This document shows positions 18,001 to 35,114 of a stretch of 64,000 nt of DNA, piece by piece. The DNA is taken from contig JBCCYW010000003.1 of assembly GCA_039188945.1 (NCBI GenBank), forward strand, positions 8,573 through 72,572, given 5' to 3'. The notes beneath the pieces were generated by a model, which saw nothing but the letters and a program-made list of their open reading frames with translations, did not search any database and was not told where the DNA came from. This DNA is from Patescibacteria group bacterium. Lineage in GTDB: Bacteria; Patescibacteriota; Minisyncoccia; Phycocordibacterales; UBA918. Every line of letters starts with the position of its first letter. Position 1 is the first letter of the stretch. The position numbers and the translations under genes were made by a program.

Positions 18001-20971
18001 TATCGAAGTAAAGGTGAAAGGTACTATCGTCAGCCGTGTTAAGAACCGGCGCCCTAAAGTGCAACTCACCCTGATCACTACCAGTATCAATCCAAACTAA
18101 ATCAGTTGGTACTTCAGTAGCACCATCACTTCGCGTTACTCTGATATCACGACCGTCATTCGTAACGCCACTCCAAAAATCGTCACCAAGTGTCGACAGG
18201 TCAACGTACACTGGGAAATCAACCAAGGTCTCAGTAACTGATGTCGAAGCGATGTTAATTGCCACTCTTCCCTCCCAATTGAGATTGTAGTTGTTCTCAA
18301 CTACCGGACCATTCTCCGGGAAGAGGTTGTTTTCTACCCGCTCTTGAATAAACCGAATATCACTACCATCGTCAGCAACGTTCGTCCAGAAGTCACCAAG
18401 AGCACTGTCAATCTCAAAGAATATCTGCTGCTCAGTCAGTGTCTCGGTGCTGTTTGTGTTATCAATTTGAATTGGGATTCTGTACTGCCACTGACTTGAC
18501 CAGAATGGATCCAAGAGACCGTACTCACTACCGCCCACTGCTTCGATCCAATACTCACCACTGGAGAAAGCTGGGAAACTAACTTCCATCTTGAAGTACT
18601 TAGTTTCTCCAGGACGAATCGCAAACGTGTCAGGGGTGTGTCCATCTACCCTAAAGCTGTTCGGCACAAATTTTCGGTCAGGGCCAAAACCAAAGAACTC
18701 GCCTACTTGTTCAATAAAGCCAGGTTCTGGGAGTGTGCCTACAGCATATGTGGCAGCTTGCCAACCACCTGCATACTTAACCACTTCGTGTTCTCGTACT
18801 TTTACATTATCAACGTGACAAGCTGTGTTATCGCCATCAATTGAATTACAGGCCCGAACAATATTAGTGTTGCGACAGACATATGTCTGGGGTGTTTCGA
18901 TCGCTTCAGTTGTAGTAGCTTGTTCGCTAGTTCCAGTTGCAAGTGCTGTCGCTTGCGTGAACAAACGAGCATCTGTCAGAAGTTGAGAGGTTGTCGTCGT
19001 AGCAGTTGTGCTGGCTGATTCAGTATCTAGCGAAGCTGCTTCGGTCGAAGTAGCTTGGCTACCTTCGGACGGCTCAGATGAAGTAGCAGTTGCTTCTGGT
19101 AGCACTACAGACTCAGCACTAGTTGTTGCTTCAGTTTCGTCCGCCTCAAGTGGATCAACCAACGCCTCAGGAGTGAATGCCCGAGACATATCAAACAGTG
19201 AGTCAGAGATCGGCTCGCCAGAGTACTCCCATCCATCAGCGCAGTGATAGACAAATGGTCTGTATTCAGGAATTGTGACTTGTGTTGGTTTATTCTGATT
19301 CCATTCTTCTAGTGAGACAACCTCTCCCTTGGCATGCGGGAAGTAGGTTTGCAGTGAAAACGTATCTGTATTATTTGAGGTGTTGGTGACATTGAAGTAG
19401 GTCGTGATTTCGGTAAGACCGTTATACGTCAGCTCATCTGATTTGATGATCAAGGTTTCATCGCTATTTTCGTCGGTATTGTCAAACGTAATTTCACGCC
19501 CATCAGGTAGCACCAACACATCTCCTACCAGCGGATCAGGATTAAAGCCATCATCTTCGAGCAAAGTTGCAATGTCAATTGGTTCACCAGTATTTTCGAG
19601 TGTAAACAATTCTAACCACGCACTTTCGACAAAGAGATACTCGACGTGTTCTGGATTATTAGTGAAGCGAAGTTGGAACGTCAGATCTTTGAGAACAGCT
19701 GGGTCTTCAATTGTTGGTAGCGCAAAGAGATAGTATCCGCCATTAATACCATTTGACTGCTCTTCATCAAGTAGAATTTGACCATTTTCTACCCACGACT
19801 CTCCACCATCAAATGAGTAGCGAAGCTCTAATGACGTTACCTCATCACGAGTCTCTTTAGGGGCGCCAGCAAATGACAACCTGAATTGAGCACCGGTAAG
19901 TTCCAGCCCGTCTTCAAAAATTGGCATTGCAAAACCGGACAGAGTAAGTGTGTGGAGTGAACAGTTTTCGACACAGTCGCTCGTGCTCGTCGCCAGACTG
20001 CTGTCGTCAACCGTTTCACTGGTTGTAGCTGAAGACGGAACCTCGTCTATAACTACCTCACCCAGCAGCTCCTCAACCTCGTCTGTAAATTCATTTTCAG
20101 AACTTGTTGTTGTCGCCACCTCTTCCTCCTCAGGCACCTCTTCAACTAAATTTTCTTGTGCACTCAGTGTCTCAGTCGGTAGTATCTCAGTTACTGTTGT
20201 AGTACTTGCTGCTGCTTCTGATTCAGACACAATCTCTTCTGTATCTGTCTCAATGTCTTCACTACTAACAACCGTTTCAGTAGTGGTAGCAGCAGTAGTA
20301 AAGCCAAACACCCGAGTAACAGCACCGAAAGCAAAACTGAACAACGAATCGACTGTCTGGAGCACAGTAGTTGTTGAGGCCGCTTCTTCAGCATCTAGCT
20401 CGTTTGAGGACGTGGTCGCAGCTGAATCTGACTCAACAACATCCGGTACCTCAGGAGTTACCTCGTCTGCCTCAGAAATAGTAGGTTCGGTTGTTGTTGC
20501 AACCACCTCCACTGTTGTCGTTCCATTTTTTACCTCTGGCTCTGCGGGTACGTCAGGGGTGCTCGTGGCAACCACCTCAGTCGTCGTACTAACTTCAGTG
20601 GTAGTAGTAGCTGAAGAAGTAGCACTACCTAAAGAAATTACCGGCTCCTCTACAAGCATCACTTCTTCGTTTTCAAATTCATCTCGAAGCTCGCGCAACG
20701 TTTGATCACCAGTACTTAAGTACGCAGAATTAATTTCATTAAACTCTTGTGATAGGGCATATTGGTCGAGATTTTGGAAGGTCACCGTATCAGCATTCAC
20801 CCAGCCAACAGATTCAATTGACTCAGGGAAAACATTGACGCTACTAACCACAATCTGGCTTTCAGAAAACTGAGCAAACACTGCATATCCTGCAAAACTA
20901 GTTACCACCAGTGCTGTAAGAACAGAAACTTTCTTAATTCCAAACAAAGAAGCACTATTAAACCGCCTCAA
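1..20971 (-). CDS. Giant secreted surface protein, 3'-truncated by the window edge (>6,900 codons in window). N-terminal signal peptide; repeated DUF2341-like (FPxYxDLxxLGxxFWxxVxxDGxDIRxT...GELHFKA...YFDNPDAxAY) and LamG/concanavalin-like modules
   Basis: Own translation of the minus strand in frame with codon first bases at positions =1 mod 3. Open at the N-terminus (TTG at 20971 giving MRRFNSASLFGIKKVSVLTALVVTSFAGYAVFA-QFSE; in-frame GTG alternatives at 21043 and 21055; in-frame TGA at about 21149). Open for about 7.5 kb read codon-by-codon, and open again at positions 1-250. The ORF track lists no complete ORF in this frame over 21 kb: all 24 listed minus-strand ORFs here share one other frame (end =0 mod 3) and the plus-strand ORFs are low-complexity shadows. 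The track finder appears to need ATG plus an in-window stop, so it would miss this gene. Confidence 0.72.
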   Translation of the reverse strand, partial: MRRFNSASLFGIKKVSVLTALVVTSFAGYAVFAQFSESQIVVSSVNVFPESIESVGWVNADTVTFQNLDQYALSQEFNEINSAYLSTGDQTLRELRDEFENEEVMLVEEPVISLGSATSSATTTTEVSTTTEVVATSTPDVPAEPEVKNGTTTVEVVATTTEPTISEADEVTPEVPDVVESDSAATTSSNELDAEEAASTTTVLQTVDSLFSFAFGAVTRVFGFTTAATTTETVVSSEDIETDTEEIVSESEAAASTTTVTEILPTETLSAQENLVEEVPEEEEVATTTSSENEFTDEVEELLGEVVIDEVPSSATTSETVDDSSLATSTSDCVENCSLHTLTLSGFAMPIFEDGLELTGAQFRLSFAGAPKETRDEVTSLELRYSFDGGESWVENGQILLDEEQSNGINGGYYLFALPTIEDPAVLKDLTFQLRFTNNPEHVEYLFVESAWLELFTLENTGEPIDIATLLEDDGFNPDPLVGDVLVLPDGREITFDNTDENSDETLIIKSDELTYNGLTEITTYFNVTNTSNNTDTFSLQTYFPHAKGEVVSLEEWNQNKPTQVTIPEYRPFVYHCADGWEYSGEPISDSLFDMSRAFTPEALVDPLEADETEATTSAESVVLPEATATSSEPSEGSQATSTEAASLDTESASTTATTTTSQLLTDARLFTQATALATGTSEQATTTEAIETPQTYVCRNTNIVRACNSIDGDNTACHVDNVKVREHEVVKYAGGWQAATYAVGTLPEPGFIEQVGEFFGFGPDRKFVPNSFRVDGHTPDTFAIRPGETKYFKMEVSFPAFSSGEYWIEAVGGSEYGLLDPFWSSQWQYRIPIQIDNTNSTETLTEQQIFFEIDSALGDFWTNVADDGSDIRFIQERVENNLFPENGPVVENNYNLNWEGRVAINIASTSVTETLVDFPVYVDLSTLGDDFWSGVTNDGRDIRVTRSDGATEVPTDLVWIDTGSDQGELHFRAPVLNTADDSTFHLYFDNPDATAYASTSEFGSQNVWTNNYAAVYHFQDQGQPGQNNIGEYLDSTSNGFNAEDDTSATGTTGRLGDGVEFDIATTSGVDLVDHINIPVAVADSKLEMTYSVWYQTSNSLSSLDHTLLSGFNTSQNNEWIAWIENATQMEQFIDNSQENGNQVLLSNIGDGAWRQYVYTRSSDEFDDETRQYVDGALLYADTNIDNADQTFDINGLNIGSEQDTNVEQNNGGNQLLDGFVDEARFADGVRTDGWIAAEYTTQANPTSFYSTSTDLIAVPAGGDVWYSTSWNQRQLFTISRDNVDADITNFPVYLDLGTLGSTFFSGVASDGRDIRITTRAGVELPREVVRVDTGSGLGEVHFKTDLSSTEDNEFYIYFDNPDALAYADDDVYGAHNVWTNNFIAVYHFDQDAAGVGNDEVYLDSTSNEYHGDDENSSDDTTGIVGRGLELGDSSGDHIDLPDEALTGVTDIAVSGFYKVPVAAATDERTILSAANVVEDDEFRVALEFDGSGDDEIFFVHSANNESTGYDNGQNWGDDQWDHFLLSGDDSEDTVAFYLNGVPDGENGNGTQDEVPIDAILVANGGLVIGQEQTTVGSFDTSNQFIGLMDELRIASTTRDDNWADLEYETLANPTTFISTSTAETLQEVDFVELDYWIQHFSSSTQEADIWVQVDEIPAGGTALIWLYYGASGVTSTSNEVDTFTYSRLTELFYIVDDDVSSVSIQSLIDNNQVSFDGLATTTLNQGESISTTTVDENTIIRALGPISGTVSGQTGNTQDSTDSIAPISFATTTHAIGTNRAVNDWYAFSPFGSTTVRVFEAASASAGATFNVATSSAGTANLDITDSGQGVDGAGAIITSTLPAVVTHKNSTPGDGIVSYPPTTRDLFGVYTQNIHLSAVQGTTVDVFCSDGSSATGIAVSRGDHEAEVTCDTGADSEGAGPAARYTGSTVPVTALQQADADGNESTMFWPQMEFGTRYAMTNDAAYVAVVCSPRFGSVSLEIQDSTGGFIESATCSPNTTDPGKVLFNGGTDGDTLNYPAGYQVVSTNGVPFYAIYEDRSIQNSGTNVGDEKNLVGTVQARKFGADAFTIAFGQQEMANDADYEQLSFLWYQNGNTETPTSTWPISDSNVTEGESITGSGALQDGDVIRLRMNIEASTATGTENSAAFRLEYGAATAADQCSLIAESNWFEVGQPGSTTAAFSGFDIPLIQDGRILSSTTLASSTVFGTYEERNLSNLIQNEIGVGQVAEFDWVLQATNVDININYCFRMTRSGGAPLTTYTLYPQLETVGPPNVPTLLAFFDNERTATRTPMLEFVSSDIAGDDIDYQVQVANTVDFASPLIDRNSDDNFLEFENINNNGDKAPFSSGNQVRFTSGTSLATGTTYWWRVRADDPNGSATTSEWSSPYSFTVEDLIEVTEWYQTTGDQFSTNELSNMSTSSGEVALASSPATMTSTAIDFDDATFGNAWGEVSWSDTVTSGTSSVQVQFNDSGTWTLIPDSQIPNNSIGATSSPISISELDTSVYNEIRLVATFEGTTVSLQEWSVKWGLRVNTPTLGDSFDNEKFAGLSPVFDFTTTDPQGDNLEYELSISTDIDFLTSSSTFNSSTSPGFSAGNPYASGATVTYTTQTPLTNNTTYWWRVRAKDPNGNDSFSPWSEPDSFTASTSVSVSTWFQTTQEQFDQGELAGVIASSSDSVEITDVVGEFGTISLTNNNWTTVNTQNIYNDMVVVSTPEFDFQAGGQASGRTVRVRNKTSNSFEIKVDNYQNNFTGSTDVDYVVAETGDWTIDDGGSGFRLLAGTQESVSATQVDGYSNTVGEVITFTPAFSGIPVPITTVSTNNDSEWVSSHVDGGGTFQTEVTSSQMRVALALSRHTTSGRSGSEDIDYIVLDATTSTDVGGSVFQSLNSPDGDVDDGGAQVSISGFSTTPAITLIQNNAEDGGQGGFAQKDLGGTSNASNIFVSISEQGSLADGHTQEIVSIVAFENTAGNLTRLNAGDLTGTIAGEDIIFTDGAGPKFDNFSWVDSTPATSDILYQLQYQVSDGVYALIPDSAIPGNSTGTTTSPIDLTNVDINTYGIIRPFATLSCGGGSCPSIDNWQLEWSEGVNMSGIVYEYDRVTPVTSGTIMAAVNNGPALLNTGTIAGDGTWTLANVTAFAGDIITVWVDGAADPDEAVAVFEYDGVGDITGVTLYEQHLSLQADEDSTVFNNNLAAYDNSISGNEDIFFDVDLSGNLNVCAVGSCGNANLYIGPRTTYTASSSQTVSVTTHDFVNDGIVELDGNTFTVSGSWENNATSSTDTSTINLVATSSSETIISTESPLDFHNLSMGAGAGTATYTIATALDLSGSLTVASGTFDRGVNDISLQGNLSTGANATWLGVATTTFDGNAAATWNDDHVSSTTLQNIGNVVIDGVSKFVALTSDVKAYDITIGANDTLSGATYAFYVGGDWTNTGTFLAGSSNVEFIPDDRSYPAAIPGSADWYADISFASRLPIVVQDSEVSGALTNFPTFVDLSTLGSDFWGSVQTDGDDIRITTNDGMTELPYDLVEFDASAETGELHFLADAISSSATTTFYIYFDNPAADGYLATDTYGSYAVWRDYEAVYHFNDDFSTVGTIIPDDSGRGRDLLLLGGAMATTSGQVGVALNASGSAGYLIDTDFSWTSGDRLTTSGWYFLDDFDNETVWEWGTGDGPNDIEFRPWTGGTSGLHYFGRDDGQAAYTINPRTPSIWRHFTTIGVTSTTQFNLVYEDGVQVESVQQGGGADENPSNTGGLRVAGNAGGGAFLGYIDELRIATSSRDASWVEAEYSNQFTPTDFYATSSVEAYTPATTTDEATHNISSGGSSFFDITFADATTSPAFTEPSVVVSGDFTVATGTVALPTSKLNVGGSFINNGVFMHNNNEVEFDGSGSEVITLNGTEFLNQFYDVTFSGSGDWTFTDANATTTNLFAIEDGTVTFPSGALAIGNTLDVSGSGDFTANGGTVVFTSASSVDVTTNNAAFNNVIFGSGVLDSWYAAAWSDRVVIDIASTSVTGAMIDFPVYINLADLGSVFWANVAADGADIRMTSSNGTTELAYELVSIDTNTQTGELHFKAPMLTSGTDNRFYLYYNNVNATAYSPTDTYGRNNVWTNDYLAVYHLGEEVAGTGNIGVYTDSTGNGRDGDDFVDATGTTGFIGQGQEWDEANADYIQIATSTLDGQTDVTVSWWYQTTELNDHAVVSGANSGQFNEVLIRLDNSDEFEWFDEGTVDFVDISLINDGAWRAYHTVRDTDNNIVRFYINAEEDDQSPTLETLDAIDINDGALIIGQDQDSILGGFDGGEELDGFLDELRFSSVVRDAGWITTEYDNQFAPTSFYATSSELFTEAAPVFTLNEANADADGDVTVSGALLIAPSDTFTIGGSALNNSGTYDANNATTTFDSNDLGETIDFGTGIFYNLSFNGVGGGWTLSTTTVENNATLVTGDSFVQAPNTTLSVQNIFRNSFTAASTTWTDSTLVLTGGDYVVTDRLDSGDDYATIEVSGDSDITIWNSTISTSTILDTSSIYMPDFGGNNGELRIFGDYTRTTGAEYWSSATDFDGTDISGSPRQVDVRIASGTSVRLSGSAILNMLGSSTASTTVDAITGTFDLSLSGATLNAQYFTMTGTGVNGFELLDSVSVTNFTNGDFSIASGTTAVTVDASTINAQPSTEYPDLNFASVSGPSVNVTASGTASAFWLFSGGVGDRYGESFDDDDGDPGTIQWDDSNYAISIRGTVYADNGSTTASASVCNGVTQNVTVVLDSGPSYTAACDPTDGSFEVTGIVYVGEPKVTAYLNSEATNGAMDIFLLDELTGSGVGTGAGVTTVTRPTTIEDNSVLVAIIGKNDDPGITPPAGWTLINEFGDAANDDIYTGIWYRVVSDASSEPTSYDFNALNNNQGYSYWIGSFLNVDTTTPIDVSSGWTELLDDGTPETPSVVTTVNNTYVLSSWFVDNDVAVQVASDEGWDTRAYNIVGTNNVNLSVISRQFATPSTTQSIEMVGVPGTRDPHVGTFALQPAATPPTATTSVSAAVVTQTPLGTPTDPVYEDIAVRDSSFDQQQFATGATVVLTTPSVVTNDVLVVIIGKDDDPTVSAPAGWTEIATRGENAEADVFGGAWYRVVTDATTEPATHTFTNNDGTDEIAYWIGSLSGVDVTSPLDVATTWDYQLNDNSPAAESITTVTDKAQVFAAWMVIGDTNVDMPLDWETLVEDSLSPAGNTDRLFAVSTKLQEEFGATGDAEITSLGNQDSMTIQFAMRPQEQAVPSRIEGFDIYANQVIVRHEDIAALTIADMTRFDNDNDSDIPFTASTSTSPDLLTVLPGSGLYVWDSKQFIPGGEINLSGYGTTEQDGTLSIGNGGTLTMAGTDPVTIGGGFYGENGAVFSGASSTVTFTATNTGQTIDSRASSTFTFYDIDFTGVGGGWAVQTPIISQTGINLATGTVSGVSDVTVESGSFSGNGLVNMTGGTVAIERNNTLGGTQGWTFNNLTLGNVTDSDSTTMASDATTTVRSVLTISTNHLLDGGEATFDLTGSGNVFATNGTFQQGTSTVRYSGATPNIDRTPYYNLRIDTDAGGDVVATGPSTNLQVFNSLTVGNQGTSTLDLNTNDPALAVAELIYIGQLGTIEASDTATLEAFGSWDNDGVFAANGGTVRFGEVVSNEAIAAGSSPFADLTIDGLGTFTMTEHATVTGDMVLGAGNFTMSGGQVLSVGNTFTNSMLGGATNWTGSTLRLYGDQAYDVNAKTTSQTYGAIVTASSTQPRFWNATSTSITTNDASSVYSRNHAGVDGALNIYGEYRNSGFDDYWSYNEDFDGAALGGGARQAAVLVEAGGSVLYTGGSLTVLGSSTATTSIDALTVGTYDFRLGGSTDVNMNYYQFRDTTADGLTFSGSPDVTDLSHGDFEIAIAGGSGMTVGGSVISANPAPNYTNIRFATTTAISAFNVTATGSAASSWRFVNVPGNLAGEDFDNDPGDDPGLLVWEDSAAIINIEGTVYSDDGVTESGIGICDGATANIFLSMDGLTFASTSCAIGSADYTFSGISYGLSDVITVYIGNGAGSGVVVSQDPLSSIGNMDIYENRVIVRHESGDPLTIDDMDTWDSDDDADIPFTATGGSPDTLVLPSNHKLVVWESKTFAPDGDVTVSGGGAGADFDGTVELLSNATFQMAAGEEHSIGGSLITAAGAVFDASTATTTFTTTGAARTININDDDFYNLVFNGTGSWTVTDTTLTTGSNFLIQNGAVTLPSGTTTIGASFVNSGGSFDSNGGRIVFDATSSGNTVTFGGSDTRSVLFAGTGGGWTMADTNATTTDYFRVATGSVTLPSGVLAVGADFIVNDTITNNSGTVRLATSSGAYTVTLSGNDLNNLFIDNFGSYTFSDVSASLLGDLDITTGASLAIGDGTFSIGGSLAATGTLATASSSILFNSGDTGELIYPGNNVFYDVVFGGALGGWTVGANATVTNNLSLSAATTYIQSSGTTLYVGGVFTNNIGAATTWLGSTLVLDSGSIYETNSKSTPAELYDTVILGENTDVSTWNASSTNLTVPVTSSLYSQDHANNDGDLAIFGDYNITSGTEYWSYATDFDGAALGGSSRAVDVFIASGATTTLVSGTLEIIGIANSTTTISTPGSGQYSIQVLAGVFNAEYFDFEDLDTNGLQFSGTPTITSLDNGGFTQALNGASLITLASTTLNANAGLIITGSRFTDGGFTGGINVNLDATTTNSWTFTGHTGNLSGEVYDQDGTDACSSIRWDDSDCLLTEQAHYRWRNDDGGEGAPPGTWYDNNWSSRQRIRIDNNDLSTTTNAAVKMVVPYDADMQTDFDDLRFTDSSGVTEIDHWQERFSTGVSADVWVEVPTLGADKVTEIYMYYGNVSASSTSSSSEVFIVVDDFEDNNLDEYGGDKGLFSTNATFAFGGGFGLDTSGFETSRAPDGIFSTTSVVSQGEIIRYMQYVDTTPGAGAENEACAMFGVQTPGLDNDNYGVCLELFGTERISLVKNVEST

Positions 20972-21086
20972 TTGGTCTTTGAGCGCTGTAAATATCGATA
21001 TATTGAATTTTTGTCTTGTTTTGTGAGACTCTTTTTTGTTCACACCACAAGCCACCCAAGATTCTGCGCAGGCAGAAATTGGGCTA

Positions 21087-21098
21087 ATTATAATTATA
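21087..21098 (-). promoter_or_regulatory. Two overlapping TATAAT -10-like hexamers upstream of the giant gene
   Basis: Minus-strand reading gives GATATAATTATAATTAGCCC just downstream of the 21101-21123 hairpin and upstream of candidate start codons. No clear -35 box. Confidence 0.35.
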
Positions 21099-21100
21099 TC

Positions 21101-21123
21101 GCGCAGTCCTAGATGGACTGCGC
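21101..21123. terminator. Perfect 9-bp inverted repeat gcgcagtcc-tagat-ggactgcgc. Probable terminator of the 21159..22739 gene, or an operator
   Basis: Seen directly. Lies 36 bp downstream of the stop of the upstream minus-strand gene and is followed on the minus strand by an A/T-rich tract. Confidence 0.5.
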
Positions 21124-21158
21124 GATACGCCTCAAATATGTGGATTGGTCAGTGTTTT

Positions 21159-22739
21159 TTACTTCAGAATCGACTTTACATCATTGATTTCTTTTTCTAT
21201 CAAGGTCTCTGATACTTCGAGTGCCTGGTTAAGTCCTTCGACCGCTTCTTTTTCACCTTTTGAGAGTCGTTTTCGTTTGGTGATACTGTTTACTTGGTCA
21301 TAAATTTCATCACGCAGGGCTGAGAATATCTTCTCCATTTGATCCTGAATTTCACGAGTTTCTTTTCTCAGTTTTTCTTCCCGAAGATGATTCTGTTTCT
21401 TCTCGTACCAGATGAATGCAATCAACATGATGATAATGAGCACGAGCACCATGATCAGGATGTTTACTGCGCTGAAGAATGCCCAGAAACTTGACTCTTC
21501 GTCCACCTCTTGCGGTGGCAGCCAGCCAGCTGTGATGAGCACTGGTACCGAACTCTCTGTCTCGTTACCAGCCTTGTCAGAAGCAACTACTCGTACCGTG
21601 TATGTACCATCTTCAAGTTCACCAAGCAGGTACCCGAGGCGTGCTTCGTCAGGAGTGATTTCAAAAGGTTCCTGGTCAGCAATTGTCATCTCATACACCT
21701 CGATACCTGATGTTTCATCGTTTGCCTCGAAGGTCAGAAGCGGGAATGACGAGGCAGTAGTACCGGCCTGTACATTGATCTCAAAGTCTTCTGGCGGTGT
21801 TGTGTCAATCTGAATCTTTCGATTAAGGACCGTTCCCCATCCAACTTGGTTGCGGAATTTGATACTCAAGTATTGAACTCCATCAGAGACCACATCACTG
21901 TTAATGATGAACTCTTCGATCGGCGGATCATAAACGGCATCCTCGTTCTCTTCGGGCTGATTTTCCGAAGACGTGGCAATTTCAACCGCAACTACATTTA
22001 CATCAAATGGTAGTGTCCAGCTGAAAATACCATCGGTTGTACTGTACCAAGTATCTGGATCAAGGAATTCTTGCGAACCAATTTCTGGTGCACGAGGCGG
22101 ATCACCAAAGGCGATGGCTGCGTTGTCTGCATCTGGCTCAGGTTCTGGTTCCGGAGTAGGAGTTGGGGTCGGGTCAGGTGTTGGTATCGGCGCACCACCA
22201 ACCGTAAACGTGGCGCCACTAGCATTCTCAAATACATCAGTACCAAGACCATCTGCTGCTAAAACTGACGCTGAGTTGAAGGTTACCGCGCCATCACCTT
22301 CACCAACCGCTCGCCACGTTACCGTGACTAGTGTGGAATCTGCGGTGAAAGGAGTTGGACTACCTCCCCCGAAGGTAATGGTCCCGGCTGAGTTTGAGAA
22401 TTCAGGTTCAGTTGTCCAAAGCGAGAACACCGAGCCATCTCGAGAGACACTCACTACCTGCAAAACAGCTGTATCAAATGAGAGATTTGCTTCAACAGCG
22501 TTCACGTTATCACCGCTTGGTAACACTCGAACGGTAGACGTAAATGTTTGACCATTATTGTACGTTCCGCTAGCAGGTGACACTGAGAGATCTGCCGCCT
22601 TGGCGGTAGTAGCACCAAGCACGAAAAAGGCTACGGCAACAACCGCTCCTAAGAACAAGGTATTCCGAATTAAACTGAAAAGTACAGACTGAAGAACAAA
22701 CATAGCTTCCCTCGGTGGATTACTCCGCTGCCGATACAT
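21159..22739 (-). CDS. Membrane-anchored surface protein with an N-terminal cohesin-like domain, Pro/Thr/Glu linker, Ig-like region, C-terminal TM helix and charged coiled-coil tail
   Basis: ORF track 526 aa. Segment LSVSPASGTYNNGQTFTSTVRVLPSGDNVNAVEANLSFDTAVLQVVSV...GTITFGG...TVTWRAVGEGDGAVTFNSASV matches cohesin-domain architecture. PTPDPTPTPTPEPEPEP linker. TM helix VNILIMVLVLIIIMLIAFIWY. Start may be the internal Met (MFVLQSV...). Confidence 0.55.
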   Translation of the reverse strand: MYRQRSNPPREAMFVLQSVLFSLIRNTLFLGAVVAVAFFVLGATTAKAADLSVSPASGTYNNGQTFTSTVRVLPSGDNVNAVEANLSFDTAVLQVVSVSRDGSVFSLWTTEPEFSNSAGTITFGGGSPTPFTADSTLVTVTWRAVGEGDGAVTFNSASVLAADGLGTDVFENASGATFTVGGAPIPTPDPTPTPTPEPEPEPDADNAAIAFGDPPRAPEIGSQEFLDPDTWYSTTDGIFSWTLPFDVNVVAVEIATSSENQPEENEDAVYDPPIEEFIINSDVVSDGVQYLSIKFRNQVGWGTVLNRKIQIDTTPPEDFEINVQAGTTASSFPLLTFEANDETSGIEVYEMTIADQEPFEITPDEARLGYLLGELEDGTYTVRVVASDKAGNETESSVPVLITAGWLPPQEVDEESSFWAFFSAVNILIMVLVLIIIMLIAFIWYEKKQNHLREEKLRKETREIQDQMEKIFSALRDEIYDQVNSITKRKRLSKGEKEAVEGLNQALEVSETLIEKEINDVKSILK

Positions 22740-22742
22740 CTA

Positions 22743-23210
22743 TTATGACATACGTCGGCGGCGTTTATCTTGAGTAATCTTCAGTTTTACTTTTTCTTTT
22801 TCTTCAGGTTTTAGAAGTGGTAGAACAAGGATCAAAACTCCATTTTTAATTTTTGCTTCAGCTTTCTCGATTTCAACACTCTCAGGCAAAATAATTCGTC
22901 GATAGAATTCTCCCCAAACACACTCTTCAGTAAAGAAAGCCCCGGCCGGCTTCTTTTTAGGAAACACGAGATACTCAGGGCGCAGACGCCGTCCTTCAAT
23001 CAGCACAATGTCCGCATCACCCTCAATTGAGACATGCACATCGTTTAGGTCGGCCCCAGCTGCTTGCGCGTAAATCACAATCATCTGTTCGGTTTGGTAG
23101 ACGTCAACATCAAGCTGCGCGATTTTATCAACCGCTGTTTCTTCTTCACTTGATTGCAGTGACGCGCCAGCGCGGACACCCCGACCTTTTAGTCTTTGCA
23201 GAAAGGACAT
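22743..23210 (-). CDS. Hsp20/alpha-crystallin family small heat-shock protein
   Basis: ORF track 155 aa. LDVDVYQTEQMIVIYAQAAGADLNDVHVSIEGD..LVIEG....GEFYRRIILPESVEIEKAEAKIKNGVLILVLPL is the alpha-crystallin domain signature. Gaps of 4 and 56 nt to neighbours. Confidence 0.85.
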   Translation of the reverse strand: MSFLQRLKGRGVRAGASLQSSEEETAVDKIAQLDVDVYQTEQMIVIYAQAAGADLNDVHVSIEGDADIVLIEGRRLRPEYLVFPKKKPAGAFFTEECVWGEFYRRIILPESVEIEKAEAKIKNGVLILVLPLLKPEEKEKVKLKITQDKRRRRMS

Positions 23211-23265
23211 AGATAGCTAAATAATACCTTGTTGCTGTATAAATAAGGTGCGTTTTACCCACATC

Positions 23266-25245
23266 TTACCCAGTCCAATTAAAGAGCAGGATTGAGAAGT
23301 CGGTCAGTGTGACATTGCCATCACGATTGATGTCTGCCGGGGGATCAGAAGCACCACCATCAGTTCCCCACCAAAAAAGTAAAATTGAGAAGTCGATGAG
23401 ATTCACACTTCCGTCTCGGTTCAGGTCTGCATCCAGAGCGATTTCTGCTTCCTGACCAACTCCATAAAATGTGTAGCCTGAGAAGTCAGTTTCAATTGGG
23501 TCGTCATTAACGTCTGTTCCGTTGGCTCGAGCTCGTACTTTATACGTACCTCGTGCAAAGCCAGTGGTATCAACTTCAACCGACCAGCGGCCGCGGTTGT
23601 CAGATTCAGTGACCAGTGTTTCAAGTGACGCAGACGAACCGTCTTGTTCATTCTCGATTGTTACCGTAGCGTCAGGCAGGGTGTAACCACTGATCACAAC
23701 CAGATCACCAATCTCAGCTGGATCAGGTTCAACCAAAATAGATGGCATAACATTCACATTAGACAAACTCGAAGTTCGTGAACCAGTGACTGTAAATGAA
23801 GTACTGAAGGTTGATGAGCGAACATTCTCATCGTCAACACCATATACACCAAACGTATAAACACCCCGCGCAATTTCATCGATTGTCACACTGTACCGAC
23901 CATCGCTATCAGAGGTATCTGTTTCTGCGATATTGCCATCAACCAAGGCAACAATCGTACTAAACGGGAAAGCATACCCATTGATAATCACCCGTCCATC
24001 ACCACTTTCAAACGGTGCATCGGTACTTTCAAAACCACCACCTGATTCATCATCATCGTCGTCACCAGAGCTACCGCCACCACCGCCACCAGAACCGCCA
24101 GTACCAGCATCACCACCTTCTGCGGGAGTTTCACCGCTGGAGTTACCGGTTGTACCGCCTGAGCCGCTACCGTCTCCTGTGCCTTCATTGCCTGAGCCGC
24201 TACCGTCTCCCGAAACATCTCCTTCTTCGTTCGCCGTACCCGTTGGAATATCGTTTACCGTGAACTGAATCACATAATCGTCAGTATTGAAGTTACCTTC
24301 ATCATCGATACATCGTACGTAGAAGGTGTTCACACTATTTGGCACAATTGCCACCACTTCTGAATGAAAAATTAAACCGGTTGTATCAAAGACATTCGCA
24401 GCTGACGATCCATACGCCACACCAGAGCTGGCAGAAAATTGACACACCGCCAACTCGTCAGTTTCTAAACTGATTTCTACGTTGAGTGTTGTACCACCCA
24501 CAGTTGTGGTCGGGGCACCATTAAAGCGGAACGGTGGCACTGTCTCAGTAGTATCAAGAGACGGCACATTTACCTCTTCAATGAGATACAGAACTGGATT
24601 TGCATTAGCGACTAATCCCCCGTCATAGATTTCAAGGGTCATATCATTGCGACCTAGTGACGGGCCATTTTCAATTGGCTCAATATCTGCGGCAGTCGTG
24701 GTGGTTCCGGTTGAGCTACTGAAATTAATGCTGAAAACATTAGATTTCGATGTGTGATTACCAATTAAAATCTGCACCTGATCCCCTTGACTAAGGCCGG
24801 TAGACGAATTGAGTGTGTATTCAATTAATCCGGGACTACCAGTAGTTATGGTCACACCGTCAAAGGTTGCGTCTGGAGATGATGAAGAGAGGCGAGGTGT
24901 ACCATTGACCACCATCTCGACATTTCTCACGTCACTAAATGTCGACGTTGCTAGAATAGTGAAACCAGTTGGTGGTGTAATATCAATTCTGGCCCCCGGA
25001 GACACAGCAATGTTTGTGGTAAAACCAATCGTATGGTTTGCAGGATCACCAGGCGTCGAGTCAGACAACGTATCGCTATACGTCAAGATATTGTTGTTGG
25101 TCGCACTTGCACTCTGTGGCGCAATAACAAACAAACTCAGTACAAAAAAACTGATCAGCACAAAATGTTCTAGCTGAGCTAGTTTGCTATACATATATAT
25201 GTATAGTTTACCGTGTGCAACTAGTACAAATGACGCTTCGTACAC
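23266..25245 (-). CDS. Secreted protein with a C-terminal type-I dockerin domain (two Ca-binding repeats), Gly/Ser-rich linker and Ig-like domains
   Basis: ORF track 659 aa. C-terminus LDADLNRDGSVNLIDFSILLFWWG...ADINRDGNVTLTDFSILLFNW has two canonical DxNxDGxxxxxD dockerin loops. N-terminal signal peptide (likely start MYSKLAQLEHFVLISFFVLSLFVIAPQSASA at about 25194). G/S/D low-complexity linker around 24040-24240. Confidence 0.7.
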   Translation of the reverse strand: MYEASFVLVAHGKLYIYMYSKLAQLEHFVLISFFVLSLFVIAPQSASATNNNILTYSDTLSDSTPGDPANHTIGFTTNIAVSPGARIDITPPTGFTILATSTFSDVRNVEMVVNGTPRLSSSSPDATFDGVTITTGSPGLIEYTLNSSTGLSQGDQVQILIGNHTSKSNVFSINFSSSTGTTTTAADIEPIENGPSLGRNDMTLEIYDGGLVANANPVLYLIEEVNVPSLDTTETVPPFRFNGAPTTTVGGTTLNVEISLETDELAVCQFSASSGVAYGSSAANVFDTTGLIFHSEVVAIVPNSVNTFYVRCIDDEGNFNTDDYVIQFTVNDIPTGTANEEGDVSGDGSGSGNEGTGDGSGSGGTTGNSSGETPAEGGDAGTGGSGGGGGGSSGDDDDDESGGGFESTDAPFESGDGRVIINGYAFPFSTIVALVDGNIAETDTSDSDGRYSVTIDEIARGVYTFGVYGVDDENVRSSTFSTSFTVTGSRTSSLSNVNVMPSILVEPDPAEIGDLVVISGYTLPDATVTIENEQDGSSASLETLVTESDNRGRWSVEVDTTGFARGTYKVRARANGTDVNDDPIETDFSGYTFYGVGQEAEIALDADLNRDGSVNLIDFSILLFWWGTDGGASDPPADINRDGNVTLTDFSILLFNWTG

Positions 25246-25248
25246 AGG

Positions 25249-26052
25249 CTACTGCACGCAGCGAAAACCAACTGCTGTACCCGAGAAACTCGCCTTTGTC
25301 TGCATATGTGAGGTATAGATACCGGCGTCTCGCTGACTGCCATAAAATCCTCCTTTCATAATTCCGTACGTACCCGTGTTGTCAGACCAAAAGTAGTCTC
25401 CAGCAAACAGCTCACCAGGAGTTTCTGTAGTAGCTACAGCAATTCCTTCACTATCAACCTCACTAACATAGCCCTCTTCAGGTAAAGCTCTATTTTTATA
25501 TTGTCCAGCGATCACATCACCGCTGACCCACTCCCAGACATTTCCAACCATATCTGACACACCGCTGGGAGTTCGACAGTTTTCATACTCTCCAGTCTCA
25601 CGAAGTTCTCGACTACCCACATTACACTCTTGATCTGAGTTTATGAGGGCTTGTGCTACTACGTACCATTCAGACGCAGCTGGCAAGCGAGCTTCGCGAC
25701 GAGCACAGATAGCACTGGCTTGATCTCGGGTGACGTGGCGCCAGGGTAAAACACCCGGCTCAGATCGTCCGGAGCAAGTCTGCATTTGGAGATTCTGTTG
25801 TGTCTCATTGCTTGTGGCTGGATGAGCATATAAACAATCTCCTCCAGCACTTACCTCAAATTGATCGATACACGAAAAAGTAATCCCTGCTGCGACAGCG
25901 ACCATACCATCTGGACAAGCTGTTGCGTCTGTCGCGATGAGTTGTCCAAGTAACGTAGACTTCGAACCTCGCAATGTATCGGTGGCATCAATACCAAAAG
26001 CCGTTATCACAACCGCTCCTACCACTACTGCTATACCTTTTACCCATTTCAT
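25249..26052 (-). CDS. FGE-sulfatase (SUMF1/formylglycine-generating-enzyme family) domain protein, N-terminal TM/signal. Paralog 1 of 3
   Basis: ORF track 267 aa. MVGNVWEWV...GGFYGS...GFRCV motifs of the FGE-sulfatase domain. TM/signal KGIAVVVGAVVITAFGI. Confidence 0.75.
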   Translation of the reverse strand: MKWVKGIAVVVGAVVITAFGIDATDTLRGSKSTLLGQLIATDATACPDGMVAVAAGITFSCIDQFEVSAGGDCLYAHPATSNETQQNLQMQTCSGRSEPGVLPWRHVTRDQASAICARREARLPAASEWYVVAQALINSDQECNVGSRELRETGEYENCRTPSGVSDMVGNVWEWVSGDVIAGQYKNRALPEEGYVSEVDSEGIAVATTETPGELFAGDYFWSDNTGTYGIMKGGFYGSQRDAGIYTSHMQTKASFSGTAVGFRCVQ

Positions 26053-26053
26053 A

Positions 26054-26878
26054 TTACTGACTTATCGCACAACGAAAACCAATCGCTTCTCCAGCAAAAC
26101 TAGGATCAATATGAGCGTGTGTAGTAAACACCCCAGCATCTTCCCGGCTGCCATAAAATCCACCGCGCATGACGACATATCTACCTGAATCATCAGGCGA
26201 CCAAAAATAATCATCACCAAATAATTCACTCGGTGATGCGCTGGTGGTGTCAGCCAAGCCATTGCCTGACACCGATGTCACATATCCTTCTTCTGGTAGC
26301 TCGCGCTGCGCAACTGAACCTTCGACAACCTCAGCATCGACCCACTCCCAGACATTGCCGACCATATCAAACGCCTCAACTCCAGATACGCATGCTGACC
26401 ATGTCCCAGTCTCGGTCTTCGTACCGGCGATGTTACATGCACCTCCGGTATCTGGCGTTGCCTGACTAGCCACATACCATTCACGTAAAGTAGGTAACCG
26501 TTTACCAGCTTTCCGGCACAAGGCTTCAGCTTGATGCTTTGCCACGTTAGTCCATGGTTGCACGTCTGGTTCTGATACCGGTTCACAACTGCCAGAGTTA
26601 AGGTTCTCGGTAGTTGCGGCAGCACTTCTTGGTAGCGAGGTTGGACAAGAACGATCTGGGCTCACTTCATACTGATCGATACAAAACGAAGCGGCACCAT
26701 CGTCAACAAATACCATACCTTCCGGGCAACTCTGGCGAGATGCGCGATCAGCTAGTATGCCAAGAGCCGACTGTGATCCGCGAAGCAGGTCTGTAGCGTC
26801 AATCGTAAAACTTGTGAGTGCAATAATACCCACACCAACAAAAATAAACCTCGCCCCTCCAATGACGAAACGCTTCAT
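26054..26878 (-). CDS. FGE-sulfatase domain protein, paralog 2 of 3
   Basis: ORF track 274 aa. MVGNVWEWVDAEV...RGGFYGS...GFRCA. 1-nt gap to paralog 1. Confidence 0.75.
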   Translation of the reverse strand: MKRFVIGGARFIFVGVGIIALTSFTIDATDLLRGSQSALGILADRASRQSCPEGMVFVDDGAASFCIDQYEVSPDRSCPTSLPRSAAATTENLNSGSCEPVSEPDVQPWTNVAKHQAEALCRKAGKRLPTLREWYVASQATPDTGGACNIAGTKTETGTWSACVSGVEAFDMVGNVWEWVDAEVVEGSVAQRELPEEGYVTSVSGNGLADTTSASPSELFGDDYFWSPDDSGRYVVMRGGFYGSREDAGVFTTHAHIDPSFAGEAIGFRCAISQ

Positions 26879-26905
26879 TCTCTACAGTATACGACCGGGC
26901 TAGGG

Positions 26906-27730
26906 TTACAGGACAATGTCTTGTACACACCGGAAGCCGATACCATTAGTCTTAAGCGTAGGCGCCACTGAGTAATTTTGAGAAAAAATACCAGCATCAC
27001 TACCCGCCCCATAAAAACCACCGCGTAACACCCCACGAACTCCTTCTCTGTTTACCCATGCATAATCATCGCCAAACTCAGGAACCGGCGTCGGTGAAGT
27101 AGAAGCAACCACTCCGTACTGATCAACCATTGCCACAAAGCCTGGTTCGGGAAGTGTTATCTCTTCACGAACGACACCCTCACGGACAGTCTCATTCGTC
27201 CACTCCCAAACATTTCCAACTAAGTCATAGACTCCTGACTGACTAGAGCAACGACCAGTTCCGGTCATTTCAGGATTAGAACCACTGTCAACCACACAAT
27301 CAGACTGCTCTGTAAGTCCAAGCGCTGTTCGATACCATTCTTCTGAGCTGGGCAAACGTTTGCCAACTCTGGCACATAACTGCTCTGCTTGGGTTTGACT
27401 CACAAACCGCCACGGCATAGCTTCGGCTTCTGAAACAGGCTCACAGCTTACTTCGTCAATATTCTGTCTACTCAATTGCTCATTACGGCTATCACGCTGA
27501 GGACAAGCTGACCCTGGAGAAGATTCATATTGATCAAAACAAACCGCGTGTGTACCGAACACCATACGCACGGTACCGACAGGACAAACGTTAACTCCCT
27601 CACTGACTAAGCCACGCAATAAACTTGAGTTGCCCTGAAACACATCTGCCGCTTGCAAACCAAGGGTTGAGATCACTACCGCTGCTCCACCAACCAGGAG
27701 GGTTTTAGGTAGCCTGCGAACGTTGCTCAT
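26906..27730 (-). CDS. FGE-sulfatase domain protein, paralog 3 of 3
   Basis: ORF track ORF 26906..27781. LVGNVWEWT...RGGFYGA...GFRCV. Start trimmed to the internal Met (MSNVRRLPKTLLVGGAAVVIS) to avoid a 77-nt overlap with the upstream gene. Confidence 0.7.
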   Translation of the reverse strand: MSNVRRLPKTLLVGGAAVVISTLGLQAADVFQGNSSLLRGLVSEGVNVCPVGTVRMVFGTHAVCFDQYESSPGSACPQRDSRNEQLSRQNIDEVSCEPVSEAEAMPWRFVSQTQAEQLCARVGKRLPSSEEWYRTALGLTEQSDCVVDSGSNPEMTGTGRCSSQSGVYDLVGNVWEWTNETVREGVVREEITLPEPGFVAMVDQYGVVASTSPTPVPEFGDDYAWVNREGVRGVLRGGFYGAGSDAGIFSQNYSVAPTLKTNGIGFRCVQDIVL

Positions 27731-28145
27731 ACCGAAGCTGTTCTCGACCACGTACGTAGTCGAGAATATAATTAAGCACAATTAGTACCAATAGGATAAA
27801 GAGGATGGTGCTTAGTACGTACGTTGAAATATCGATATCTTGAGTTGTACCAGTTTGCGTCGATAGATTTATGGCAATTTCTCGGTCGGCTACTGCTGCC
27901 TCGCGCTCATCCAGTTCGCGTTCTCGCTCAGTAATTGCAGCGGTCATTTGGTTAAGTTCAGTTGGCGCCACACCAACACTCACACCAACCGCGGCGCCTA
28001 AATAATTTTGGGTTGATTGTGACAACTGGCTAGTTGTTGTTGATAACAAGCCACTATCAAAGACAAGAATGAAAGCAGTAACAACAGCGGCTACCCGAAG
28101 TAAGACATGGTAAAACGGTACATTCATAGGTCCACTATAGCACAA
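27705..28145 (-). CDS. Small membrane protein with central coiled coil (hypothetical)
   Basis: ORF track 146 aa. N- and C-terminal hydrophobic segments flank ERERELDEREAAVADREIAINL. Confidence 0.45.
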   Translation of the reverse strand: MCYSGPMNVPFYHVLLRVAAVVTAFILVFDSGLLSTTTSQLSQSTQNYLGAAVGVSVGVAPTELNQMTAAITERERELDEREAAVADREIAINLSTQTGTTQDIDISTYVLSTILFILLVLIVLNYILDYVRGREQLRYEQRSQAT

Positions 28146-28157
28146 GCACGTACTGTG

Positions 28158-29228
28158 CTACGCAAAGAGCAGTAGCAAAACAATCAGGAAGAGAGCCGTG
28201 ACAACCAGCATCACAATCATGACCATAAAGAGTGTTGATGTGCCGCGAGACTGGCGACGCCGCACTAATCGGCGACCGCCACCATACGCAGCCAAGGTTC
28301 GGCGGATGTAGGCCCGAACTCCAAAGTACGTAGCGAGCAGTAACACCGCAAGCACCCCGAGAGCTGGACCAATAATATCCATTGGCAAAATCCAGAAAGA
28401 GACAGTACTGAATATCGTTGATTTTCGTCCGTCCGCTCCGTACGTCAGACTAACTACAGCATTGTACCGACCAAAACCAGGACCTTCATCTTCCCAACTA
28501 ACAACAAAATCTCGATCAGTTCCTGGGAATACTCCCCCTTCAGATTCATTTAGGGTTAGTAAGGCAACCCGTTCACCGAACATATTGAACACCTCAAGCG
28601 GACCAAATGGTCGAACCAGGACGTTTCCAGCATTCCTAATCGTAGCCGTAAATGCAACATCAGTTGAACCATAGATATAATTGTCAGTTGAGAACGAGCG
28701 TAGCTGAGCACTCTCAACCGCATCCCCCGCAACACGGATACTCACAATATTAGCCACTTCATACCCAACTGCAGCACCGACCGTTCGAAGTCGAGGTGGA
28801 TCAACCGAAACAAACACTCCACCGAAGTGACTTCCAGGAGAGGCGTCTTCAGGGACACGCAACGTAAACGAGACCTCTTGTTCACTACTGGCGCCAAGGG
28901 TTATTTCTTCAGTGGATAGTTCAATCCACTCGGACAGTTCAAAGCCAGTTTTTTCAGTATTTTCATTTGCGAACACTGGTACACCACCATCGCGAACACC
29001 AATGATATCACGCTTAAACAGGTAGATAGTTTGTTCGACGTCAGCCAAGTTACTCACCGTAACGGTATACTGCTTTTCTTCACCCGGCACTGCCGGTTCC
29101 TCAATCGTGGCGGGCTTAATACCAATACCTGCTGAACCCTGCGCCAATGCAGATTCTGCCGTAAATAACCCCATCACTGCTAGTGACAGAGCAATAAGAA
29201 AAGTCGTTCGCTTCATTCCGAGTAACAT
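28158..29228 (-). CDS. Cell-surface protein with signal peptide, beta-rich ectodomain, C-terminal TM anchor and Arg-rich tail. Possibly DUF916/DUF3324-like
   Basis: ORF track 356 aa. Signal peptide MKRTTFLIALSLAVMGLFTAESALA. GIGIKPATIEEPAVPGEEKQYTVTVSN. C-terminal WILPMDIIGPALGVLAVLLLATYF then RRTLAAYGGGRRLVRRRQSR. Family assignment is tentative. Confidence 0.5.
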   Translation of the reverse strand: MLLGMKRTTFLIALSLAVMGLFTAESALAQGSAGIGIKPATIEEPAVPGEEKQYTVTVSNLADVEQTIYLFKRDIIGVRDGGVPVFANENTEKTGFELSEWIELSTEEITLGASSEQEVSFTLRVPEDASPGSHFGGVFVSVDPPRLRTVGAAVGYEVANIVSIRVAGDAVESAQLRSFSTDNYIYGSTDVAFTATIRNAGNVLVRPFGPLEVFNMFGERVALLTLNESEGGVFPGTDRDFVVSWEDEGPGFGRYNAVVSLTYGADGRKSTIFSTVSFWILPMDIIGPALGVLAVLLLATYFGVRAYIRRTLAAYGGGRRLVRRRQSRGTSTLFMVMIVMLVVTALFLIVLLLLFA

Positions 29229-32113: not shown

Positions 32114-32275
32114 CTCTCAAATAGTACCTTAGTTTTTAATGATTTCGACTAACCAACAGAGTATAAGGTAAGTCTCTAGACAAAAATCTAAATATTTACT
32201 AGTGAGTGGCGAGAAGGTGAGAAGTTTATAAATAAAATAATAGTGTTATGGTGAATCTTGCTAACGATTTAAATA

Positions 32276-32303
32276 TTGACACAATGTTATTTTATTTTAT
32301 ACT
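32276..32303 (+). promoter_or_regulatory. Near-consensus sigma70-type promoter TTGACA-N16-TATACT
   Basis: Seen directly: ttgaca at 32276-32281 and tatact at 32298-32303, in an AT-rich 200-bp intergenic region 17 bp upstream of the 32320 ORF. Confidence 0.5.
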
Positions 32304-32319
32304 CTAGACCAGTAGTGTA

Positions 32320-32862: not shown

Positions 32863-32961
32863 ATTAATCTAAAACGAAGGAGTATCAGAGCCGCCAATTA
32901 ACTTCGAGAGAAAGTTGGTTGGACGGCTTTTTCCTATATAAAACTTGAATCAATTTGTAGA

Positions 32962-35046: not shown

Positions 35047-35114
35047 AGAGGCTAGTATAGCGGCAAACGAAACAGCCGGCCAGCACGTAGTGCTGGCCGG
35101 CTGTTTCTTCAGCA

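Follow-up and report, generated by a model that had tools for sequence, protein, structure and literature searches.

Why should a 64-kb stretch of DNA from the Patescibacteria (hereafter, the window) encode a membrane protein that displays a cohesin and, two genes away on the same strand, a secreted protein that ends in a dockerin, with the gene of a small heat-shock protein, Hsp20, between them? We call the two proteins COH and DOC, and ask whether their modules are partners, what such a joint would hold together, and which neighbouring genes belong to the same system. A sequence-only reading of the window had taken the linked pair to imply a Ca-dependent, cellulosome-style surface assembly. 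Our analysis points elsewhere: with a probability that we put at roughly 55%, DOC and COH are the cognate, non-cellulosomal cohesin-dockerin pair of a Pam/WxL-type, pilus-like surface-filament cassette in Patescibacteria.

The apparatus with which the ultra-small, episymbiotic Patescibacteria attach is only beginning to be worked out; a first description of the Pam pilus came in a 2026 preprint. If the pair is wired into Pam/WxL-like operons, it would show how a cell with no outer membrane and a minimal wall secures such filaments or the proteins at their base, and the cohesin-dockerin principle would reach beyond enzyme scaffolding into the anchoring of appendages. It would also supply a simple, testable pair from uncultured organisms, made of two small modules with a Ca2+/EDTA switch. 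As domain annotation alone the finding is ordinary: the domain content is not new, because 100%-identical NCBI entries already name the two proteins by domain ('cohesin domain-containing protein' and 'dockerin type I domain-containing protein'). Nor is the pair notable simply for lying outside the cellulolytic Firmicutes, as the sequence-only reading had it, since non-cellulosomal cohesin and dockerin modules are established across all three domains of life, according to the passage of PMC8542988 that cites Peer et al. 2009. What is new is the context, namely a cohesin-dockerin joint in pilus-type operons from the Candidate Phyla Radiation (CPR), a conserved COH tail and, in one lineage, an intercalated Hsp20 gene. 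Our search of the literature on cohesins or dockerins in Patescibacteria, CPR or Parcubacteria found no description of a DOC-COH module.

Cohesin and dockerin modules of COH and DOC

COH is encoded at 21159..22739 on the minus strand, as are all genes of the cassette described below. Coordinates in this text are those of the longest open reading frames (ORFs) in the window; by this measure COH has 526 aa and DOC 659 aa, and the NCBI calls are shorter (514 and 642 aa, respectively). The second ATG of COH (22703, Met13) is preceded by a GAGG-type ribosome-binding site and is probably the actual start, which would give the protein of 514 aa. From N- to C-terminus, this type-I membrane protein consists of an N-terminal signal peptide with a cleavage site between AKA and AD, a cohesin, a linker of Pro, Thr and Glu, two immunoglobulin (Ig)/fibronectin type III (FnIII)-like domains, a single C-terminal transmembrane (TM) helix at residues ~417-446 and a helical cytoplasmic tail of ~80 aa.

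The cohesin module (residues 49-181, 22197..22595) is supported by Pfam, by an AlphaFold2 (AF2) model and by Foldseek. Pfam Cohesin (PF00963) matches residues 57-163 with 31.1 bits against a gathering threshold of 24.1, and a precomputed match to the same family is on record for most of the best 120 COH homologues. The AF2 model, built with 26 homologues, reaches a per-residue confidence (pLDDT) of 83-95 over the cohesin (residues 51-180). When this model was compared with the PDB by Foldseek, the best match was the type-I cohesin 6kgf_C (E 1.8e-10, target TM-score 0.78, root-mean-square deviation 2.5 Å), and the best matches comprised type-I cohesins of Clostridium acetobutylicum, C. cellulolyticum and C. 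thermocellum OlpA/OlpC. Non-cellulosomal cohesins were matched as well, among them archaeal 2xdh from Archaeoglobus fulgidus and 2vo8 from Clostridium perfringens. As modelled, the COH module superposes on solved type-I cohesins and has their nine-stranded beta-sandwich, and the cohesin that the sequence-only reading had placed at the N-terminus of the membrane protein holds up both in the profile search and in the predicted fold. Conservation within the module peaks in model strands 3, 5 and 6, in the 5-6 loop and in the loop after strand 8; with the strands numbered from the COH model, these stretches would lie mostly on the sheet that binds the dockerin in solved complexes.

DOC (23266..25245) is a secreted protein composed of a signal peptide, a beta-rich, pilin-like N-terminal region, a Gly-rich linker, two Ig-like domains that AF2 models well, and the C-terminal dockerin (residues 607-659, 23269..23427). 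Its two EF-hand-like repeats are DLNRDGSVNLID at 23427..23392, followed by FSILLFWW, and DINRDGNVTLTD at 23334..23299, followed by FSILLFNW (DFSILLF.W as the pattern shared by both). They form two tandem segments of ~22 residues in which an EF-hand-like Ca loop (D1, N3, D5, D12) precedes a putative helix, the arrangement that defines a type-I dockerin, and a scan for dockerin motifs in all six frames of the window found none besides these two. Pfam Dockerin_1 (PF00404) matches residues 607-653 with 29.1 bits (gathering threshold 22.9), and solved dockerins came out on top when the module was searched against PDB sequences (2y3n_B, E 8e-4, both repeats aligned). Among 26 homologues, the Ca-loop positions D607, N609, D611, N615, D618 and D638, N640, D642, D649 are invariant or at least 90% conserved, and the module, helices included, is nearly invariant in the DOC family. 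We assign the dockerin on the hidden Markov model (HMM), the conserved Ca-loop positions and the matches to solved dockerins, in agreement with the two-repeat, type-I dockerin that the sequence-only reading had recognized at the end of the secreted protein. No catalytic or carbohydrate-binding module was found in DOC by Pfam, which returned only the Ig-like domains.

The Gly/Ser/Asp-rich linker of DOC (residues ~334-415, 24001-24246) is modelled by AF2 with very low confidence and is not drifting freely, as many of its glycines are invariant across the 26 homologues. This part of DOC may serve as a glycosylation or flexible-spring region.

Linkage of the DOC and COH genes across relatives

In the direction of transcription, the cassette reads u376 (a secreted protein), a WxLIP-like protein, tm146 (a small membrane protein), a variable number of genes resembling formylglycine-generating enzyme (FGE)-sulfatases, DOC, Hsp20, COH and a giant ORF. 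The sequence-only reading had the three ORFs from DOC to COH in their right places on one strand, although it called the dockerin gene downstream of the cohesin gene, of which it is in fact upstream. The intergenic gaps, given there as 4 and 56 nt, are 3 and 55 nt with the longest ORFs, and the one between Hsp20 and COH is more likely ~39 nt because of the GAGG before the ATG at 22703 and the 514-aa call at NCBI. The upstream genes that are Pam-pilin-like and WxLIP-like went unmentioned there, as did the giant gene on the downstream side and the conserved tail of COH.

Among the candidates scored, 875 cluster representatives for COH and 675 for DOC reached E <= 1e-5. The best 120 homologues of each are 56-74% identical to the query, and the named sources of the homologues are Patescibacteria (Kaiserbacteria, Nomurabacteria, Paceibacterota and Parcubacteria). 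An exhaustive search with a COH profile returned 1,837 cluster representatives at 50% identity with E <= 1e-30, in which full-length, cohesin-less (~350 aa) and longer forms of COH occur. Gene order was followed in a close set of 84 loci, 80 of them from different GTDB species representatives, and in a distant set of 80 loci, obtained from a metagenome scan with a distant COH subclass and 33-42% identical to their own reference. Within the distant set, 46 loci had enough upstream sequence to be counted on that side, and 26 had at least 4 kb downstream.

The cassette order is almost invariant over the 84 close loci, with 0-4 FGE genes, and DOC lies upstream of Hsp20-COH in 65 of 66 (GTDB species representatives and close relatives). 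The linkage persists at distance: directly upstream of the cohesin gene or genes, ~44 of the 46 distant loci have an ORF of the DOC family that ends in a dockerin (37 by a strict script, plus 7 that failed its gap threshold only), and sampled distant members score 28.7 bits for Pfam Dockerin_1 and 39.3 bits for Cohesin. Hsp20 is missing from the commonest distant operon, in which a short DOC of two Ig domains and a dockerin is encoded together with a short protein made of a cohesin and a TM segment and with a long COH. Two further distant loci combine the pair with other parts of the cassette in different surroundings: L087 has pilin-like genes, three WxLIP-like genes, tm146, a dockerin-ending DOC, Hsp20 and COH between different flanks, and L088 has the same gene set minus Hsp20 and a COH with two cohesins; neither has a giant gene. 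From the distant loci it follows that the cohesin-dockerin pair is a deeply conserved unit, and that Hsp20 and the giant gene are lineage-specific. Where the cohesin is gone (four COH relatives) or degenerate (one), there is no DOC gene in the sequence seen.

Two side observations concern the variety of these modules. Distant operons (L093-L172) encode a second, short cohesin protein of ~310 aa with a cohesin, an Ig domain and a TM segment, and in at least one of them (L112:4726-5601) the C-terminus of the ~310-aa protein is instead one dockerin-like repeat, GDGKVNLVDFSIVAFYWTG, a hint of adaptor-type assemblies with several cohesin-dockerin tiers in CPR. In one cohesin-less relative, the truncated COH gene is followed immediately downstream by a separate 173-aa ORF (L091:8525-9046) with a weak Cohesin match, which suggests a gene split or rearrangement.

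The modules could be genuine without being partners. The dockerin might bind another cohesin encoded elsewhere in the genome, a wall polymer or a host surface, and the cohesin another ligand, and the two genes would then be neighbours because envelope genes are regulated together. Many non-cellulosomal dockerins and cohesins indeed lack a known partner, at least as far as the relevant passage of PMC8542988 goes; one close locus (L010) has a COH with an intact cohesin and no DOC at the usual, adjacent place, and distant operons have 2-3 cohesin genes per dockerin gene. Independent ligands, however, do not readily account for an adjacency kept in 65 of 66 close and ~44 of 46 distant loci despite 33-42% identity and changing flanks, for the loss of cohesin and DOC together, or for the occurrence of just one dockerin and one cohesin in 64 kb. 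We consider this explanation improbable.

A probable pilus-like context for the pair

If the two modules are partners, the rest of the cassette bears on what they would connect. At its upstream end, u376 (29419..30549) encodes a secreted protein of 376 aa with a signal peptide. Aligned by hhalign, u376 residues 23-267 and DOC residues 34-325 match with a probability of 99.1% (E 7e-19); judged by this profile alignment, the N-terminal two-domain region of u376 is paralogous to the DOC N-terminus. The same protein is probably a distant relative of the Pam-type pilins of CPR. Pam pili were solved for the CPR parasite Mycosynbacter amalyticus in the preprint from which the NCBIfam model CPR_Pam_pilin_C, NF058581, comes (Troman et al. 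2026 preprint, 10.64898/2026.03.03.709456). Ten of 13 members of the u376 family match this model (best E 2.4e-7), and u376-family genes in distant DOC/COH operons match it over its whole length with 77.3 and 51.1 bits (cut-off 55). The linker and the C-terminal end are the best-conserved parts of u376, as has likewise been reported for Pam pilins (10.64898/2026.03.03.709456), and this conservation is the one pointer to a possible filament assembled by donor-strand exchange. By eye, we also noted a W-G-L motif and a conserved C-terminal TLTYIATPTF in u376. Its profile found nothing meaningful among PDB sequences, in a PDB copy that apparently lacks the PamA/B structures.

The next gene (28158..29228) encodes a WxLIP-like protein of 356 aa with a signal peptide, Ig-like domains and one or more C-terminal TM segments, predicted at 276-308 and 327-356. 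It matches Pfam WxLIP_PGBD (DUF916) with 31.8 bits against a cut-off of 27.3 and, weakly, EfmWxLIP1 in the PDB (9i25_C, E 0.006); DUF3324 was not detected in it by Pfam. By analogy with PamC/D of the Pam pilus and with WxLIP, both of which are described or predicted to donate a strand to their partner, it is a candidate membrane-anchored chaperone or partner of u376. The third gene, tm146 (27705..28145), encodes a two-TM protein of ~140 aa and is a conserved member of the cassette. We read the cassette as a Pam/WxL-type surface-filament cluster because of the homology between u376 and DOC, the Pam pilin matches and the WxLIP-like build of the 356-aa protein.

The same proteins might, alternatively, build a two-component S-layer without any pilus, in which DOC would be the Ig-like lattice, COH the membrane stalk and the cohesin-dockerin contact their joint, much as in SlaA/SlaB of Sulfolobus. 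COH is stalk-like, with its Ig domains, TM helix and long helix, and Foldseek matched the DOC model best with an S-layer glycoprotein of Haloferax, 7ptp_A (E 1.8e-10), and also with SlaA/SlaB (8qox_B). In work by Luef and colleagues from 2015, cryo-electron microscopy is said to have revealed an S-layer-like envelope on CPR cells. The DOC matches, however, have TM-scores of 0.1-0.16, which is a generic multi-Ig resemblance, and an S-layer leaves aside both the paralogy of the DOC N-terminus with a Pam-pilin-like protein and the WxLIP-like genes of the cassette; ~57% identity across species also seems high to us for a lattice protein. An S-layer is therefore a doubtful account of the cassette, and we think it unlikely.

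Proposed arrangement of DOC and COH

In the filament reading, Sec would export both DOC and COH, the single C-terminal TM helix would keep COH in the membrane, and its two Ig/FnIII-like domains and Pro/Thr-rich linker would hold one cohesin off the membrane. DOC, which appears to be non-enzymatic, would plug its C-terminal Ca-binding dockerin into this cohesin and may join the filament as a proximal or adaptor (base) subunit, tying a pilin-like polymer, or at least itself, to the membrane. The COH-DOC joint would thereby do the job that is done directly by a TM helix in PamR, the anchor of the Pam pilus.

Several observations weigh against this arrangement, some touching the joint and others the filament. 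Contact between the DOC and COH modules is something that we infer from homology and gene linkage only, and the L010 locus, described above, departs from that linkage. AF2 gave DOC residues 604-659 a pLDDT of ~30-40 and no helices, in a model made from a shallow alignment and without Ca. The commonest distant DOC-like protein consists of two Ig domains and a dockerin only; because it lacks the pilin-like N-terminus, incorporation into a filament is not a general property of the family. The u376 protein of the window itself scores 18.1 bits (E 0.0023) with CPR_Pam_pilin_C, far under the cut-off of 55, and its search against Pfam, even at E 10, found no family and no WxL domain (PF13731). The models for Pam chaperones and PamR matched none of the WxLIP-like, DOC and COH proteins of the window and the distant operons. 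Lastly, Pam pilins are reported mainly from Saccharimonadia and Microgenomatia, and the preprint that describes them makes no mention of cohesin, dockerin or Hsp20 (10.64898/2026.03.03.709456).

The COH tail and Hsp20

The cytoplasmic tail of COH (residues 450-526, 21162..21392), which is predicted to be helical, is the best-conserved part of the protein, above any extracellular part. Its 20-residue blocks reach 0.96-0.98 identity across 82 sequences, its mean identity to the window residue is 0.85, and it is kept in 62 of 66 distant long relatives. The tail motif, IFSALRDEIYDQ...LS..E...V.GL.QALEVSE.LIEKEI, persists in relatives that are ~35% identical overall. Searches of the tail against Pfam and PDB sequences gave no match to any family and nothing meaningful, respectively.

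Hsp20 (22743..23210) encodes a small heat-shock protein of 155 aa with an alpha-crystallin domain (PF00011, 42.1 bits against a cut-off of 20.8). It has neither a signal peptide nor a TM segment, nor any hydrophobic segment, and is taken to be cytoplasmic. In conservation, Hsp20 exceeds all other genes of the block (72-87% identity, 80 loci). It lies directly upstream of COH in all 80 close loci that have upstream sequence, which bears out the sandwiched position described by the sequence-only reading, and it keeps this place in three of the four cohesin-less relatives and in the one with a degenerate cohesin. A position so strictly conserved, outlasting the loss of DOC and cohesin, suggests a tie between Hsp20 and the TM/tail part of COH, or else common regulation. 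The linkage is restricted to some lineages, with Paceibacteria-type operons: in 54 distant long COH proteins the tail is present and Hsp20 is not upstream, for which reason a dedicated interaction between Hsp20 and the tail is only a minority hypothesis. It is possible that a housekeeping small heat-shock protein has been held in place by operon history.

The conserved tail and the linked Hsp20 nonetheless point to an unexplored connection between the inside and the outside of the cell, and we offer one tentative extension on which we would not bet. In a large part of CPR, the cohesin-dockerin joint could have been recruited as the membrane anchor of a donor-strand-type pilus, replacing a PamR-like TM helix, with the conserved COH tail and, in Paceibacteria-type operons, the intercalated Hsp20 coupling the filament to a cytoplasmic partner. 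If true, this would give cohesin and dockerin a role in pilus biogenesis and define a dedicated, membrane-associated small heat-shock protein module, neither of which we found described.

The giant downstream gene and the intergenic element

Beyond COH lies a giant ORF of more than 7,000 aa (2..21055, minus strand) that continues off the left edge of the window; its frame is open for 7,049 codons (2-21148) up to that edge. This one frame fills a third of the window, and the genomes of relatives measure ~1 Mb. The predicted protein has an N-terminal hydrophobic anchor and DUF2341, LamG/pentraxin-like and Ig (Ig_Rha78A_N) repeats, is rich in Thr, Ser, Gly and Asp, and has relatives of 6,645-7,839 aa.

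Between the COH stop and the giant ORF, we found a conserved intergenic element (21056..21145) composed of a AATCCACA box, a perfect hairpin of 14-17 bp and the sequence TTATAAT. The hairpin has the form TATA[A/C/G]CGCGC...GCGCG[T/G/C]TATA, with an inner stem that is variable yet complementary; RNAalifold on 46 loci gave 12 pairs, 9 of them with compensatory changes. The element had no match in Rfam, and a simple promoter/terminator scan gave counts not above those of shuffles. Its probable role is to terminate the DOC-Hsp20-COH unit, to serve the giant gene as promoter or leader, or both.

The position of this gene raises the alternative that the pair serves the giant protein, with COH and DOC tethering it, processing it or helping its export, and Hsp20 keeping it export-competent in the cytoplasm. 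All 74 close loci counted have a giant ORF after COH, this clade conserves Hsp20 in its place between DOC and COH, and an N-terminal anchor with adhesin-like repeats would suit a client of this kind. Neither a cohesin nor a dockerin is found, however, in the 7,049 aa of the window or in the precomputed Pfam lists of four full-length relatives, and the covarying hairpin and TATAAT motif set COH apart from the giant gene. Among the distant DOC-COH loci, moreover, a large ORF stands downstream in just 2 of 26, and L087 and L088 do without one. Taken together, these observations make a role in the service of the giant protein very unlikely.

Neighbouring genes

Between tm146 and DOC, the window has three FGE-sulfatase-like paralogues (25249..27781; Pfam PF03781, 41-57 bits) that are N-terminally anchored and measure 291, 274 and 267 aa. 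This trio of tandem paralogues, of the SUMF1/EgtB fold, is an accessory insert outside the core of the cassette, and its copy number ranges from 0 to 4 across relatives. Upstream of the cassette, at 36361-42454 (minus strand), a sortase gene overlaps the end of the gene for a 1,820-aa surface protein with DUF642, SdrD_B, PA14 and LTD domains; the two make up a second, separate surface-display system within the window. In relatives, a large protein equivalent to the 1,820-aa one and a CAP-domain gene recur upstream of the cassette. At 30860-35115 (minus strand), a glycoside hydrolase family 18 (GH18) gene is flanked by genes for a Y-family polymerase (IMS/DUF4113), a NUDIX protein and an S24 LexA/UmuD-like peptidase, and this conserved block is syntenic just upstream of the cassette, also where relatives have lost the pilus-like genes.

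As for a cellulosome-like complex, in which COH would be a scaffoldin that collects dockerin-bearing hydrolases on the surface, its chances are slight in the extreme: the modules are type-I-like by HMM, their closest structures are cellulosomal and the GH18 gene lies ~8-9 kb upstream, but the 64 kb encode just one cohesin and one dockerin, DOC lacks catalytic and carbohydrate-binding modules, no dockerin is present on GH18 or on the other exported proteins of the window, and distant operons also pair the cohesin with Ig-only dockerin proteins. We rejected this reading because the window has no multi-cohesin scaffoldin, no carbohydrate-binding module and no dockerin-bearing enzymes; what stands of the cellulosome-style surface assembly proposed by the sequence-only reading is the linked pair, maintained over deep divergence, and what falls is the cellulosome, given one cohesin and a lone dockerin on a protein without an enzyme module.

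Comparison with known systems

The filament reading can be set against five kinds of known assembly. Likeness to the S-layers of SlaA/SlaB is limited to the general plan of an Ig-rich exposed protein and a separate membrane-anchored stalk protein; it is generic (TM-scores of ~0.1-0.16), and the joint here would be a cohesin-dockerin one.

With the non-cellulosomal modules typified by 2xdh and 2vo8, DOC and COH share a single cohesin or dockerin, the lack of cellulases and an origin outside the cellulolytic Firmicutes. They differ from these in forming a fixed gene pair in a surface-filament cassette, in which a TM protein with a conserved cytoplasmic tail bears the cohesin, and the presumed partner of the cohesin is an Ig-domain, pilin-like protein. 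Similar in plan are the single-cohesin anchoring proteins OlpA/OlpC of C. thermocellum, where one type-I surface cohesin holds one dockerin-bearing protein. The complexes 3ul4 and 4dh2 of OlpA/OlpC are structural matches of COH, and the dockerin of 3ul4 is a sequence match of DOC. OlpA/OlpC are anchored to the wall by S-layer homology (SLH) repeats and bind enzymes; COH, in contrast, is anchored by a TM helix that leads into a cytoplasmic tail, and no enzyme module is present in its presumed partner.

For the surroundings of the pair, the WxL/WxLIP (Csc) clusters offer one comparison. For Firmicute WxLIP, the prediction is that a hairpin strand of this protein enters the WxL partner (Hassan et al. 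2023, PMC10599100). As in those clusters, a DUF916-type, Ig-like protein with a C-terminal TM segment stands beside secreted surface proteins in the window; unlike there, Pfam detects neither a WxL domain in u376 nor DUF3324. To our knowledge, neither cohesin nor dockerin is found among the members of WxL clusters.

The last comparison is with the Pam pilus. Its pilins, PamA/B, have a beta-sandwich N-terminal domain, a donor linker strand and a truncated Ig-like C-terminal domain, PamC/D are PapD-like chaperones that keep a C-terminal TM helix, and PamR, the anchor, combines a pair of FnIII domains with a TM helix (10.64898/2026.03.03.709456). Like the Pam system, the cassette is CPR-specific and Sec-exported, and it includes a putative pilin relative with a conserved linker and C-terminal domain and a candidate two-Ig-domain, membrane-anchored partner, the WxLIP-like protein (cf. 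PamC/D). The lineage differs, being Paceibacteria and not Saccharimonadia or Microgenomatia. COH resembles PamR in its two Ig/FnIII-like domains and C-terminal TM helix, whereas the putative base protein, DOC, has a dockerin where PamR has its TM helix.

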